IMG/VR virus record: IMGVR_UViG_3300045988_051734
Location: 36,921-100,920 of that record
Reading direction: 5' to 3' (one strand)
Source: a virus
Length of the DNA stretch: 64,000 bases
Every line of letters begins with the position of its first letter. Positions within the stretch are counted from its first letter, which is position 1. Position numbers and translations under genes: made by a program. Positions 27,198 through 64,000 of this stretch are shown here, one piece after another. The notes beneath the pieces are model-generated. The model did not search any database. It was not told where the DNA came from and saw only the letters and a list, made by a program, of their open reading frames with translations.

Positions 27198-27222
27198 GAC
27201 AAGTCCCCGTTTTTTTTTATTG
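27173..27222. terminator. Strong bidirectional rho-independent terminator at the junction of the two convergent arms.
   Basis: cggggacttgtc-aaattaa-gacaagtccccg followed by T9. Confidence 0.65.
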
Positions 27223-27648
27223 TGATTTAATTGGCAATTCTATAGCTAATTCATAATATTCTTTAGCTTGACCGTTTCCGCCCAGTCCAGAGTATACTCG
27301 GTAAAACTCACTTAACTAGTCATATTGATCCTATGTTATATATCCCTATTTGATATATTCTTTACATAATTGCACTAAACGGAATTTATATGATGCAACA
27401 ATCAATTCCAAGTGCGAAGTTTCAATACTTTTAGTTTCCATAATATACTTACGGAGTTCTTCAATCTCTTCCTAAATTGGCTCAATACGGGAGTCTATAG
27501 TTTTTTCTAGCTCAGTATCTTTGCTTTCTGCTAATAACTTTTTGTAGTTTTTTAATTGGCTATATAGATACTTGCAGAAAGCAAGTGCTCCCGCAGATAC
27601 CAAGCCGAAAAAAATCTCAACTAAATGTTCAGTAACAAAAGTAAGCAT
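27217..27648 (-). CDS. Membrane protein with an N-terminal TM helix and a coiled-coil tail, 143 codons, 6 TAG.
   Basis: ATG at 27648 preceded by GGAAGGAGG. Track ORF 27472-27675 ends at TAG. The frame continues to the TAA at 27217. Confidence 0.4.
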
Positions 27649-27723
27649 AAAATCCTCCTTCCTTAAACCTCTCAAAGATTTTGAGAAAATGGGAAGGAGG
27701 ATTGTTTTATTTAGACCACATTT

Positions 27724-28203
27724 TCACCAAGCGCACTAATTTTGCTTGATATGATGCGTACCAATACAGATAGCATCCGCGATGTCCTAAATAACATGAA
27801 CGCTATAATTCTACTCTACATAGAGTTGAGCATTCTTTTTTTGTTCTGCTCTTGATCTGCCTTTAATGCTTAATGTAGATTTCCAAGACGCGGCGAGAAC
27901 TGTTGAATGAGGAATATGAAGTTCTTGCAATAGTTCTGAAATAACTCCATAAACCTCCGCTAAGATCTTAAAGGTCTAGACGTTATTAGCGACATTGTTC
28001 TATTGCTGAATATCTTCAAATACTACTTCGTCGATATTCTCGCTTTCAATTAAAGCCCAGATATTCTGTCGTAACTAAACTAGTCTAGTGTCGATATTAG
28101 GATCGTCCAAGGAAATCTTACCATACTTTTCTAACTTACCATCTTCAAAGATTGCCCAACCGGTACATTTGGACGCTTGATCTAAAGCTAAAAGGCGACT
28201 CAT
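27724..28203 (-). CDS. ruvC: RuvC-like Holliday junction resolvase, 159 codons, 6 in-frame TAG.
   Basis: N-terminus MSRLLALDQASKCTGWAIFEDGKL matches the RuvC motif (GIDPGsrvTGyAv) with the catalytic Asp. Ends TGA. Confidence 0.6.
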
Positions 28204-28766
28204 TACTTGTTTGTAGAACCGAAACCACCCAAACGCTCGCCAGTCGCAGAGTCATCATCGGTTACACCGTAAGTCTTAATAATACCCTGTCCAATCTTAT
28301 CACCGCGCTTAAGCTGAATAGCAAAAGGAGAAAGATTGATAAGCTGGAAGAAAATCTCGCCCTCGTTATCCGGATTATCACAATAATCAGCATCAATAAT
28401 ACCAACGCTATTACCCATAATCAGCCAGTGCTTAAGGGGAGTAGAACTGCGGACACTTAGTTCAAGATACTGACCTGGCTCCAGATGACACTTCATACCA
28501 GTAGATACAAGCGGAATTTTTGCCTTGAGGGCCTTAGTAATGCTTGCCATATCATCAAGAGTAAGAGGATCGATAAAACCATAGAAGTCTTCGTGGCGTT
28601 CCTTCTCGAACAAGTCGTCCTGAATCTTGGTTCTCAGGAAGTCATATGGAGGAATTACAATATCCTCAGCGACTACAAAATCATAACCTGCGGAATCTGC
28701 GGTTGCTCGAGTCGGCAGAGGGAGATCAATGTCAGCAAAACGAGATACTTTCTGAAACTTAACCAT
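28203..28766 (-). CDS. dut: dUTPase.
   Basis: Track ORF of 187 aa with the trimeric dUTPase motifs AGYDF and the glycine-rich C-terminal GGFGSTG-like tail. Confidence 0.75.
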   Translation of the reverse strand: MVKFQKVSRFADIDLPLPTRATADSAGYDFVVAEDIVIPPYDFLRTKIQDDLFEKERHEDFYGFIDPLTLDDMASITKALKAKIPLVSTGMKCHLEPGQYLELSVRSSTPLKHWLIMGNSVGIIDADYCDNPDNEGEIFFQLINLSPFAIQLKRGDKIGQGIIKTYGVTDDDSATGERLGGFGSTNK

Positions 28767-29007
28767 TGTTTACATCCTCCATCATAATCGGCATAATGCC
28801 TTCTGGTTCTTTCTCATTGTCGATAGTAATAGTAGCAGTAACGAGTTGATACTCTTCAATAATTTCACCCTTAGCCTTAATATACTTGGTGGTATACTTA
28901 AAACCGGTTAGCTCGCCAGTGCAATTCTTATCAAGCCATTCCCGCAGACGAAGAGCATCTTCAACCGTAGGTACGCGATATACAGTAGTTGTTTTCAAAG
29001 TATACAT
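28759..29007 (-). CDS. Hypothetical protein, 82 aa.
   Basis: Track ORF; ATG start, TAA stop. Confidence 0.45.
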   Translation of the reverse strand: MYTLKTTTVYRVPTVEDALRLREWLDKNCTGELTGFKYTTKYIKAKGEIIEEYQLVTATITIDNEKEPEGIMPIMMEDVNNG

Positions 29008-29009
29008 TA

Positions 29010-29270
29010 TTAAATACCTTCCACTTCAATTTTTTGCTTTGTATAATTAGTTGTATTTAGCTGTTGTTTAATTTCTTCTACTAAAGAAGGTGAAGCCTCA
29101 ATCTTTACAGAAAAAATATTAGTTGCATCTGCATACGCCGCGATATTAGCAGCGAGTGTTGAAGCATCAGATGGGATAGACGCTTGATTGATAATATGTC
29201 CATCTTGAAACACATAAATTGTAGAGTCTATGGCAAATGGATCATATAGAATTACCATTGTCTGATTCAT
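29010..29270 (-). CDS. Hypothetical protein, 86 aa.
   Basis: Track ORF; overlapping stop/start with its neighbours. Confidence 0.45.
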   Translation of the reverse strand: MNQTMVILYDPFAIDSTIYVFQDGHIINQASIPSDASTLAANIAAYADATNIFSVKIEASPSLVEEIKQQLNTTNYTKQKIEVEGI

Positions 29271-29611
29271 ACTTCAATCACTCCTTTTGTATAATCGAAC
29301 ATAGCATACATTTCACAGGTCTTGCCATTTTGAATCCAGAACTCTACCATATCCTTTTCGATCTGAATGCCTTTAAGGACGCCGAGAGTTTTTGCTACAT
29401 CAATCATCTCGTAAGCCATCTTTTTAACATCATGCTCTTGATTATAGGTATACATAGTATAGTATCTACCTTCTACATTAAGCATGAGATAATATTTTGC
29501 GTCGTGCTTTGTAAGAAACTCTTCTAGCTTCTCAGCTGCCTTCTGCACGTCGGCCTTAGTCATCTTAGAAAGGTTGCTATAAGCAGCCTAGTTGATTTCA
29601 TATAAAGTCAT
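29267..29611 (-). CDS. Hypothetical protein, 114 codons, 1 TAG near the N-terminus.
   Basis: Track ORF 29267-29563 extends in frame through a TAG to the ATG at 29611, which has an AAAAGGAGA RBS. Confidence 0.4.
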
Positions 29612-62713: not shown

Positions 62714-62793
62714 TCCTTTTGATTAGTTAATAAAGTAGTCTATTACTCTTGCTAAATCTTCTACTACTGCATAGCTAAAACCCTCCTCTACAT

Positions 62794-63411
62794 TCAATCT
62801 TTTCTCTCATATCCATGTACATTGATTTTAATATCCGAAAAGCCCCACTTAGTTTTAGGAAACTCCTTTGCACTCGGGATAGAAAATCCTTTCTTCATAT
62901 TCTTGATTGCAGAATCCGGTACTCTAGCGAAACCACTACGCTGCGCATTGCGCTTAATTGCAACATCAAGAGGAACATCAATAACCTCAAAGGTCAGCTT
63001 AGTGTGCGGATCTGCCGCCAGTCGACCAAGCAACTTGGCTCGAGAAGCAGGACTAATGTGCGTTGCATCAGCAAACACAACATCAATACCAAGCTCCATG
63101 GCTTTATTGATCTGCCGCACGAACTCATTGAATACTTCGGTTTCCTTATCGAAGTAGCTATCGCGATCATTTAAGAGGGACTTCCGCACTAAATCTCTGG
63201 AAACTACACAAGTGGTGCGGTGATCATCTTCCAGTCGAGCAATCTCTTGCTTGACCCAAGTGGATTTACCACTACCGGGTACACCTACCATTACTTTAAG
63301 TTCAGTCGTCATTCTTCGTACCTCCATATCTAGCTCACAAAAGATACCTTGCCAATGAATACATCTTGTATTTGGTGCACTACAGTGTTTGCAATTATTC
63401 TCCTGTTGCAA
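62794..63411 (-). CDS. P-loop kinase of the AAA_33/polynucleotide-kinase type with an N-terminal Cys-rich segment.
   Basis: Walker A GVPGSGKST. Size and organisation resemble the Pnk kinase domain. Adjacent to a phosphoesterase. Confidence 0.55.
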   Translation of the reverse strand: MQQENNCKHCSAPNTRCIHWQGIFCELDMEVRRMTTELKVMVGVPGSGKSTWVKQEIARLEDDHRTTCVVSRDLVRKSLLNDRDSYFDKETEVFNEFVRQINKAMELGIDVVFADATHISPASRAKLLGRLAADPHTKLTFEVIDVPLDVAIKRNAQRSGFARVPDSAIKNMKKGFSIPSAKEFPKTKWGFSDIKINVHGYERKD

Positions 63412-63619
63412 TGTTATTTACCTTTCTTATAAGACGCTTAGCTGCTTTCTGCGACATATTTGTTTTTATACCATGACAATATGCCGTATAGCGATTACAG
63501 TATTTGCATTTCTTTATCCACGTGTCATCAAGCAAATTAGAAAAACGATCTTTGTCTTCTAACTCATGGACACCAAAGAAACATAGCCATCTCATAGCTT
63601 TTTCCCTCCCAAATCTCAA
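63395..63619 (-). CDS. Small Cys-rich (zinc-finger-like) protein.
   Basis: Track ORF of 74 aa with a CKYCNRYTAYCH motif. Confidence 0.35.
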   Translation of the reverse strand: MRFGREKAMRWLCFFGVHELEDKDRFSNLLDDTWIKKCKYCNRYTAYCHGIKTNMSQKAAKRLIRKVNNIATGE

Positions 63620-63636
63620 TAAAAGGATCCCACATC

Positions 63637-63822
63637 TTAAATAACCCCTCTCATTCTTCGATTAACTTCTGCCATAACCCACGCAATATCTTCATCAGAT
63701 ACTTCGGTTTCAAACTCGATCGAACAATTCTCTCCTTTTGCTCTTGCTTCAAGAATGATATTAACCGCGTCCTCGAGATCTTGCTGATGTTCAGCAAACG
63801 AAAGAAAAGGGACAGTATACAT
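63637..63822 (-). CDS. Small acidic hypothetical protein.
   Basis: Track ORF of 61 aa. Confidence 0.35.
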   Translation of the reverse strand: MYTVPFLSFAEHQQDLEDAVNIILEARAKGENCSIEFETEVSDEDIAWVMAEVNRRMRGVI

Positions 63823-63837
63823 ATTATTCCTCCTTAA

Positions 63838-63973
63838 TAAACTGATAGATAATATTCATAGACTCTTCAACTCTACACATCTCGTTATTGGCAAGTGCGC
63901 CACTCCAATCGAGATCGTCAATAATTGCATCAAGGTGCTTCCATGCTTCAAGAGCCTTGTTCTTATCAATCAT
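63838..63973 (-). CDS. Small hypothetical protein of about 45 aa.
   Basis: ATG at 63973 preceded by GAGAGGAGAAAATAAAT. Confidence 0.25.
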
Positions 63974-64000
63974 ATTTATTTTCTCCTCTCTTTCACTTTC

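Follow-up and report, generated by a model that had tools for sequence, protein, structure and literature searches.

We report that TAG codons are read through, and distributed among genes in a strongly non-random manner, in a 64,000-nt stretch of viral DNA (positions 36,921-100,920 of IMG/VR record IMGVR_UViG_3300045988_051734; hereafter the window). The window is a piece of a virulent-type phage genome of ~145 kb that uses genetic code 15. Its arm of replication and nucleotide-metabolism genes combines TAG-free replication enzymes with TAG-bearing genes, including a RuvC-like resolvase, a RecJ-like exonuclease and a GIY-YIG protein, whose codon usage resembles that of the late genes; the per-gene pattern is conserved in related phages, the closest of which encode a CUA suppressor tRNA at the head of the same strand. 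We think it probable, though well short of certain, that TAG is kept out of genes needed early and allowed in later-acting ones, through the phage-encoded suppressor.

Distribution of in-frame TAG codons

Gene models were rebuilt using only TAA and TGA as stops, with starts set by Shine-Dalgarno context, and the resulting 61 curated genes were annotated with the Pfam and PHROGs libraries. Long open reading frames (ORFs) reappear under these stops, including one of 1332 amino acids (aa) with 12 in-frame TAG codons and another of 930 aa with 17; the 61 genes end with TAA (51) or TGA (10), and none ends with TAG. There are 133 in-frame TAG codons, located in 28 of the 61 genes. The window (38% GC) is organized as two convergent arms, one mostly on the plus strand (1-27197), which contains the late genes and serves as a contrast set, and one wholly on the minus strand (27217-64000), which contains the replication genes. 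The late arm has 94 TAG codons in 8299 codons (11.3 per 1000) and the replication arm 39 in 11385 (3.4 per 1000), all of them within 11 of its 39 genes. Relative to glutamine codons the proportions are 94/367 (26%) in the late arm versus 39/447 in the replication arm (Fisher p = 9e-11).

When the TAG codons of the replication arm were redistributed multinomially 200,000 times, the observed chi-square was never reached, nor was TAG ever confined to so few genes; the outcome was the same whether genes were weighted by codons or by glutamine codons. For the 13 Pfam-defined replication and nucleotide enzymes, the hypergeometric probability of finding no TAG in their 206 glutamine codons is 7e-12. 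The TAG-free genes have a normal frequency of out-of-frame TAG trinucleotides, at 14-15 per 1000 codons, and base composition is therefore excluded as the cause. Gene length was also considered as an explanation and rejected (Spearman -0.25, p = 0.13).

A preliminary description of this DNA, made from the sequence alone, had proposed that TAG is non-randomly distributed in the replication arm and that depletion should be compared with a null; the simulations and the hypergeometric probability bear this out, the frequency being non-uniform with length and composition ruled out as drivers. The genes that it listed as TAG-free (DnaE, NrdD, the A and B subunits of topoisomerase II [TopoII-A and TopoII-B], DnaB, PIN-PhoH, SPFH, helicase, primase and ligase) are so in our gene models, and its counts are reproduced for the RuvC-like gene (6), the zinc-ribbon endonuclease (4), a 'MuF-like' ORF (2) and RecJ (1, at codon 18). 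The GIY-YIG gene is TAG-rich as described, with 13 TAG codons by our count rather than about 14. Small size, which the same description gave as part of the rule, does not predict TAG, as 18 small genes have none and the length correlation is not significant.

TAG as a glutamine codon and its suppressor tRNA

Relatives were collected from IMG/VR as ~120 loci, of which 58 surround a DnaE homologue and 61 a TopoII-B homologue, with identities to the window from 99% down to ~45% and contigs of up to ~145-150 kb; IMGVR_UViG_3300045988_055134 and _059494 are among those of ~145 kb. Among 767 codons of relatives aligned to TAG sites of the window, 273 are TAG and 270 encode glutamine, which within the family is by a wide margin the most frequent counterpart of TAG. 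Conversely, where relatives have TAG the window has glutamine 491 times, as CAA (270) or CAG (221); this split follows codon usage and thus points to synonymy, beyond a one-step CAG-to-TAG mutation. In the late-arm serine recombinase, three of five aligned TAG sites correspond to conserved glutamines of the Sin resolvase (2r0q). From these alignments TAG is assigned to glutamine, as in translation table 15. We considered and rejected a pseudogene reading of the TAG-bearing genes, which are conserved and interchange TAG with glutamine codons. Separately, TAG-rich genes retain CAA but have almost no CAG (e.g. the gene at 7612-10368 has 16 CAA, 2 CAG and 17 TAG), and CAG, not CAA, seems to be the codon that TAG replaces.

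No tRNA genes were found within the 64-kb window, and a suppressor tRNA is absent from the window, from the 10 kb beyond it, and from the DnaE-centred loci. It was located by walking ~40 kb upstream on near-identical contigs, two of which were followed outward from the right-hand end of the window. Positions 7482-7572 of L169, a contig whose DnaE is 99% identical to that of the window, hold a tRNA with a CUA anticodon, for which the Rfam tRNA model gives 51.4 bits. CUA tRNAs are also present in the 90% and 79% identity clades, always within a co-oriented array of 26-34 tRNAs. The distance from DnaE to the suppressor, which lies upstream, is ~35 to 40 kb, and the suppressor heads the strand that carries the replication arm. 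Beyond the window's right-hand end, TAG-free genes continue for ~20 kb before the array is reached; the array is co-oriented with, and upstream of, ~55 kb of TAG-free genes. The region holding the suppressor is compatible with the standard code and presumably early. Acceptor features of the CUA tRNA are glutamine-like (U1/C72 unpaired, G73, G2:C71 and G10). A release-factor GGQ motif was not found in the 4.4 Mb of fetched loci, a search that falls short of the whole genome.

The tRNA arrays have several further features. A ~19-nt insertion lengthens the CUA tRNA to 91 nt and forms an extra variable arm in the window's clade and in the 90% clade (L169, L170, L172-L177), and the 79-82% clade has a 75-nt version (e.g. 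L094 170-244). A long variable arm is typical of serine, leucine and tyrosine tRNAs, although TAG aligns with glutamine. In the unrelated phages L114 and L118 the CUA tRNA is 94 nt long, and its extra arm has 5 bp. Directly after tRNA-Met there is a conserved tRNA-like gene whose anticodon loop has 8 nt (L112 5041-5114, L169 14386-14459); it is at the same position in L113, L151, L155, L170, L172-L174, L176 and L177; ARAGORN reports its anticodon as 'taaa', it scores 31.3 bits against the Rfam tRNA model, and it could be a quadruplet/frameshift-type or ochre-related tRNA. A phage-encoded transfer-messenger RNA (tmRNA) with the tag peptide DNNYFDSHMAA is present in the array of the 90% clade (L151 1220-1564; also L155, L170, L172 and L175-L178); the two closest contigs, L168 and L169, gave no tmRNA call. 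A canonical GIY-YIG homing endonuclease gene, with an N-terminal domain and TAG at codon 6, is located inside the array (L112 2442-3086), and several other small ORFs among the tRNAs have 1-3 TAG codons each despite the presumably early region. The upstream TAG-free genes (L059 and L079, 1-10000) include by eye NadE-like, nicotinamide phosphoribosyltransferase-like, PRPP-synthase-like and nicotinamidase-like proteins, a candidate NAD-salvage set, together with candidate RNA-ligase-like, Thg1-like, Ro/vWA-like and nucleotidyltransferase proteins related to RNA repair or tRNA.

Conservation of TAG usage and relationship to late codon usage

The propensity of each gene for TAG is conserved across the family, with the TAG density of window genes correlating with the family TAG fraction (Spearman rho = 0.67, p = 4e-6, among non-independent relatives). 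As a fraction of glutamine codons family-wide, TAG reaches 0.58 in the RuvC-like gene, 0.32 in the GIY-YIG gene, 0.31 in orf143, 0.30 in the 'MuF-like' ORF, 0.29 in a holin-like ORF, and 0.22 in both RecJ and the zinc-ribbon endonuclease. The corresponding values are 0.046 for NrdD, 0.034 for DnaB, 0.023 for primase, 0.013 for DnaE and 0.001 for TopoII-A (2 in 1378), with none in TopoII-B (0/947) or ligase (0/329). The absence of TAG from the core enzymes, as initially described, is thus correct for the window, but as a family rule it becomes a strong depletion, since lower-GC relatives carry TAG in these genes. The TAG load of replication genes varies with GC: they have none where GC is 0.39, 1-2 each where it is 0.33 and 3-10 each where it is 0.30. 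A single TAG occurs in the NrdD gene of the 90% clade and of locus L022, which is 99% identical.

Synonymous codon usage, calculated with each gene left out in turn and glutamine excluded, assigns the replication-arm genes that bear TAG to the late-arm group; they differ from TAG-free genes (Mann-Whitney p = 0.0047) and not from late genes (p = 0.42). Likewise, CAG/(CAA+CAG) is 0.32 in the TAG-bearing replication-arm genes and 0.34 in the late arm, versus 0.61 in the TAG-free genes.

The family seems to include lineages recoded at a different stop codon. The aligned genes of L046, L052 and L055 (GC ~0.27; 53-55% DnaE identity) have 10-11 in-frame TGA codons and no TAG, and these distant members seem to represent code 4 lineages.

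Genome organization

The two arms converge at a hairpin that looks like a bidirectional terminator (Table 1). Pfam and PHROGs uphold the names given in the preliminary description to DnaE, NrdD/NrdG, dUTPase, the RecD-like helicase, RecJ, DnaB, ligase, the GyrA-like and GyrB-like topoisomerase II subunits, PhoH, SPFH and the RuvC-like resolvase, and add a guanylate kinase, an AAA_24 ATPase, RNase H, an endolysin with Amidase_2 and SLH domains, a metallophosphoesterase and an AAA_33 kinase. The name 'MuF-like' did not survive: this ORF has no Pfam hit (E <= 0.01) or PHROG hit (E <= 0.001), and its 'HPNCCC'-like motif is visible by eye only. It is detected in only 12 related loci and has TAG in all 12.

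Table 1. Positions, strands and in-frame TAG codons of features in the window.
Feature	Position	Strand	TAG codons	Remarks
Late arm	1..27197	mostly +		Tail/virion-like genes, diversity-generating retroelement (DGR), serine recombinase
DGR reverse transcriptase	16772-18004	-	8	RVT_1
DGR template repeat	18294-18399	-
DGR variable repeat	19032-19137	-		At 3' end of Big_3/DUF6273 target gene (19018-20730)
Serine recombinase/resolvase	23080-23682	+	6	Start provisional
18-bp hairpin	27173..27215			Flanking A run and T run; arm convergence point
Replication and nucleotide-metabolism arm	27217..64000	-
orf143	27217..27648	-	4	Matches PHROGs of unknown function
RuvC-like Holliday-junction resolvase	27724..28203	-	6	Start overlaps dUTPase stop
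dUTPase	28203..28766	-	0
orf114	29267..29611	-	1	Codon 8
'MuF-like' ORF	30180..30815	-	2	Codons 6 and 19; overlaps NrdG end
NrdG, NrdD, guanylate kinase	30802..34171	-	0 each	NrdD 753 aa, GTG start at 33561
DnaE-type polymerase	34158..38048	-	0	1296 aa
Zinc-ribbon endonuclease	38107..38856	-	4	Two zinc-ribbon repeats and C-terminal nuclease domain
RecD-like SF1 helicase	38925..40082	-	0
orf69	40066..40275	-	1	Codon 22
RecJ-like exonuclease	40937..42685	-	1	DHH/DHHA1; codon 18
Primase, orf53, DnaB, orf176, AAA_24 ATPase	42697..47122	-	0 each	DnaB 514 aa
orf212 and orf100	48619..49562	-	1 each	Codons 34 and 22; orf212 matches phrog_6721 (unknown function)
GIY-YIG protein	49562..50473	-	13	303 aa
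14-bp hairpin	50483..50513	-		Terminator-like; immediately upstream of GIY-YIG gene start
ATP-dependent ligase, TopoII-A, TopoII-B, RNase H	51080..57104	-	0 each	TopoII-A 787 aa, TopoII-B 632 aa
14-bp hairpin and T run	57206..57237	-		Terminator-like; directly after holin-like ORF
Holin-like ORF	57242..57586	-	5	114 aa, two hydrophobic helices; three TAG consecutive; overlaps amidase end
N-acetylmuramoyl-L-alanine amidase with SLH domain	57567..58310	-	0	Putative endolysin
PIN-PhoH, orf154, SPFH/flotillin-like, metallophosphoesterase, AAA_33 kinase	58437..63312	-	0 each	PIN-PhoH 456 aa, SPFH 495 aa

TAG-bearing genes are interleaved with TAG-free neighbors, and overlap them or lie within 11 nt in the pairs dUTPase/RuvC-like, NrdG/'MuF-like', primase/RecJ and amidase/holin-like, so that transcription alone cannot separate the two decoding classes. 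The replication arm thus comprises two interleaved decoding classes, with the replication enzymes translatable under the standard code. Several candidate features were rejected. The plus strand ORFs in the replication arm (e.g. 60506-62227 and 47184-48200) are antisense shadows, as judged from GC skew and their low-complexity translations rich in leucine, serine and isoleucine. TAG codons in the N-terminal stop-to-stop frames of the helicase, a 172-aa membrane protein and wHTH86 are upstream of starts with Shine-Dalgarno support and were not counted.

The holin-like assignment of the ORF that overlaps the amidase gene is predicted from its position and topology. The Amidase_2 and S-layer-homology (SLH) domains of the putative endolysin hint at a host of Firmicutes type, Gram-positive or with an S-layer. 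The SPFH/flotillin-like gene (60608-62095, minus strand) is unusual in composition, with a GC of 0.476 and a CAG:CAA ratio of 29:1, is detected in only 11 related loci, and is possibly a recent acquisition. In the late arm there is a complete diversity-generating retroelement (16772-20730, minus strand) in which 16 of 16 differences between the template and variable repeats are at template adenines. The serine recombinase, also in the late arm, is among the genes with the densest TAG (30 per 1000 codons); it is detected in only two related loci, and is therefore probably accessory or mobile.

Nuclease genes and RecJ

The preliminary description attributed TAG in the replication arm to small, accessory and mobile genes, but only the zinc-ribbon endonuclease fits a mobile designation; the GIY-YIG, RuvC-like and RecJ genes are core genes. 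The zinc-ribbon endonuclease matches the homing-endonuclease PHROGs phrog_374 (7e-39), phrog_9084 and phrog_7140, and an 859-nt segment containing it is exchanged for 45 nt in L022 and L025, with flanks ~97% identical; it is present at the same site in L007. Its sequence matches and its presence or absence at a fixed site identify it as a free-standing homing-endonuclease-like gene. The RuvC-like, RecJ and GIY-YIG genes are conserved in the family and TAG-rich in all of the TAG-using clades. TAG is present in the RuvC-like gene of 37 of 40 relatives, and the GIY-YIG gene is conserved in ~52 of 61 related loci. The GIY-YIG protein has an N-terminal transmembrane helix followed by a long coiled coil, with the GIY-YIG domain at the C terminus (residues 212-303), and its designation as a homing endonuclease was rejected because the nuclease domain is C-terminal, following the helix and coiled coil, and the gene is conserved rather than sporadic. 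Family-wide there are 73 distinct TAG sites in the GIY-YIG gene and 51 in RecJ, with free interchange of TAG, CAA and CAG.

The RecJ start codon (ATG at 42685) is preceded by an AAGGAGG Shine-Dalgarno sequence. In relatives, codon 18 is glutamine in 22 and TAG in 11. Other clades have 3 to 22 TAG codons per RecJ gene, at ~codon 71 just before the DHH motif and through the gene body (up to 13-22), and in nearly all TAG-using clades there is at least one TAG within the ~first 70 codons, at differing sites (4, 18, ~45 and ~70). The initial suggestion that RecJ is made in two forms, a short one from Met56 before suppression and a full-length one afterwards, is very hard to sustain. In its favor, the lone TAG at codon 18 is upstream of Met56 and every DHH motif is downstream of it, but no Shine-Dalgarno sequence was found before Met56, residues 1-55 are strongly conserved across the family with Met56 replaced by leucine or valine in other clades, and those clades also have TAG codons downstream of position 56, which a start there would not bypass.

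Interpretation of the TAG pattern

Decoding of TAG would depend on the phage-encoded CUA suppressor tRNA, in the array at the head of the replication-arm strand. Strong selection would then act against TAG in genes needed before enough suppressor is present, namely those for the polymerase, helicases, primase, topoisomerase II, ligase and nucleotide-supply enzymes. Genes for products that act later, or that would be harmful early, would tolerate and perhaps exploit TAG; these would include the virion proteins, the holin-like protein, the Holliday-junction resolvase, RecJ, the membrane-anchored GIY-YIG nuclease and the homing endonuclease. Because TAG-bearing genes share operons with TAG-free genes, TAG would constitute a gene-specific layer of translational control. 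We infer, beyond what the sequence shows, that the suppressor accumulates over time and that translation of the TAG-bearing genes is delayed; such a delay may be adaptive and not simply tolerated. From established phage biology, TAG-rich nucleases and a holin-like protein made early would plausibly be harmful. The temporal layer suggested in the preliminary description is therefore retained in part: the two decoding classes, shared operons, CUA tRNA and late-type codon usage agree with it, and its mobile or accessory framing and RecJ isoforms do not.

Several observations weigh against this temporal reading. The timing of translation of the TAG-bearing genes is wholly inferred, and the suppressor is known from relatives, the window itself being without it. 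The putative endolysin has no TAG, unlike the amidases that are preferentially recoded in crAss-like phages (Borges et al., 10.1101/2021.08.26.457843). TAG codons have a mean relative position along genes of 0.50, with no overall N-terminal bias, and a first-TAG test is post hoc and marginal (p = 0.03); N-terminal clustering as a general signature of gating was rejected on this uniformity. In lower-GC relatives TAG reaches a maximum of 6 in DnaE (in a 64%-identity low-GC clade), 10 in NrdD, 9 in DnaB and 8 in the helicase, so that a constraint on genes translated before suppression is not absolute. The relatives are phylogenetically non-independent and the family-wide p-values are inflated. 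Finally, conservation is lacking for the single TAG codons of orf69, orf100 and orf114, which have the look of neutral drift and not of gating: orf114 codon 8 is TAG in 18 relatives, glutamine in 14 and lysine in 6, and orf69 codon 22 is glutamine in all 19 relatives, and its TAG is therefore recent.

A stronger form of the temporal reading is that amber codons are actively kept as translational gates on the nucleases (RuvC-like, RecJ, GIY-YIG and the homing endonuclease) and the holin-like protein, which are co-transcribed with TAG-free genes; we advance this tentatively. A single suppressor tRNA would divide individual operons into early and late protein sets, and replication intermediates would be shielded from premature processing. 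The recurrent 5' TAG in RecJ at differing codons and the 58% TAG in the RuvC-like gene would be signatures of selection for such gates.

Passive tolerance is a rival that we consider rather unlikely. CAG would drift to TAG in genes translated when the suppressor is present, and TAG, having no regulatory role, would be purged from no genes other than those expressed earliest or most strongly. The many TAG sites and free codon interchange in the GIY-YIG and RecJ genes are as expected from drift, as are the unconserved single TAGs of the small ORFs, the rise in replication-gene TAG load as GC falls, the lower third-position GC (GC3) of TAG-bearing genes and the uniform TAG positions along genes. 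Drift does not readily account for the RuvC-like gene, in which the family-wide 58% is well above the late-arm 26% and suggests a preference, nor for the TAG that almost every TAG-using clade keeps near the start of RecJ, at sites that differ among clades, nor for the TAG-rich gene set being the same in all clades.

The remaining alternatives are less attractive. Under dosage attenuation suppression would be incomplete and each TAG would cut yield, such that nucleases, holin and homing endonuclease are kept at low copy. The TAG-rich replication-arm genes do mostly code for DNA-cutting enzymes and a membrane protein, which would be toxic at high dose, their TAG counts form a graded series from 1 to 13 and not a simple presence or absence, and they are co-transcribed with genes for abundant enzymes. 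This explanation is weakened because the late-arm structural proteins, the phage's most abundant, carry up to 17 TAG codons per gene, and we regard it as improbable. More improbable still is recent import of the replication-arm TAG genes from code 15 phages with donor codon usage. It accommodates the 859-nt zinc-ribbon endonuclease insertion, the narrow distributions of the serine recombinase and 'MuF-like' ORF, and the TAG in the true GIY-YIG homing gene of the tRNA array, but the RuvC-like, RecJ, GIY-YIG, orf143 and holin-like genes are near the same markers in 36-52 loci with 40-99% identity, and are thus core genes; this synteny suggests that the RuvC-like, RecJ and GIY-YIG gene trees are congruent with those of DnaE and TopoII.

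Relationship to other recoded phages

Eight clades of recoded gut phages have been described in which the standard code suffices for early genes, recoding affects structural and lysis genes, and the replication machinery is variable in its use of the alternative code (Borges et al., 10.1101/2021.08.26.457843). A transmembrane protein of the lysis cassette is strongly recoded in those phages, a homing endonuclease in an early region has recoded stops, and recoding was proposed as a post-transcriptional timer of late and lytic genes (same reference); the idea that such a nuclease is held back is thus already published. Reassignment mostly in late genes has also been reported for crAss-like phages (Yutin et al. 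2021, PMC7886860). The phages described here resemble those of Borges et al. in concentrating in-frame TAG in structural and lysis-related genes while replication is largely standard-code-compatible, in encoding a CUA suppressor tRNA and never using TAG as a stop, in having close relatives that switch between TAG and TGA recoding, and in having a strongly recoded transmembrane protein in the lysis cassette and a recoded homing endonuclease in the early region. They differ in belonging to a separate lineage, in that only the holin-like partner of the TAG-free putative endolysin is recoded, and in the consistent recoding of the replication-arm RuvC-like, RecJ and GIY-YIG nucleases, which that paper does not single out. 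Agate, one of the Borges clades, is similar in size to the window's phage and has code 4 and code 15 members; the window's phage is a possible member of one of those clades.

Phage phAss-1, of the proposed 'Phassvirus', is a TAG-recoded member of the human gut virome with a genome of ~136 kb, 36 tRNA genes including tRNA-Sup(CTA), and TAG as glutamine in 28% of ORFs (Babkin et al. 2023, PMC10607447). The window's phage shares its genome size class, a tRNA array with a CTA suppressor and the use of TAG as glutamine, but there is no phage record with 60% or greater DnaE identity, indicating that the two are not of the same genus, and they may not be related at all. A megablast comparison of 24.7 kb of the window with GenBank phages gave no match. 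The best DnaE protein identity among GenBank phages is 39% (Enterococcus and SPbeta-like phages), and the nearest cultured phages infect Enterococcus and Bacillus.

In T4-type phages there is temporal codon and tRNA adaptation, in which the late genes match the phage tRNA set. The present phages are similar in having a large tRNA array and late-class genes with distinct synonymous usage, and differ in that the codon is a stop, which makes dependence on one tRNA all-or-none rather than graded in efficiency.

Temporal gating by recoding is the model published by Borges et al. (10.1101/2021.08.26.457843), and the phages described here are a new family displaying a known phenomenon, of which they are a clean new example. 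What is specific to them is the lineage and the presence of recoded nucleases and a recoded holin-like protein inside the replication arm, together with a TAG-free endolysin. Annotation of this phage family requires translation table 15, without which about half of the genes are fragmented. If amber codons do act as gates on these genes, recoding would operate within operons as well as between genome modules; it would restrain a holin whose early action would cause premature lysis and nucleases that would otherwise destroy replication intermediates, and the published model would be refined accordingly.

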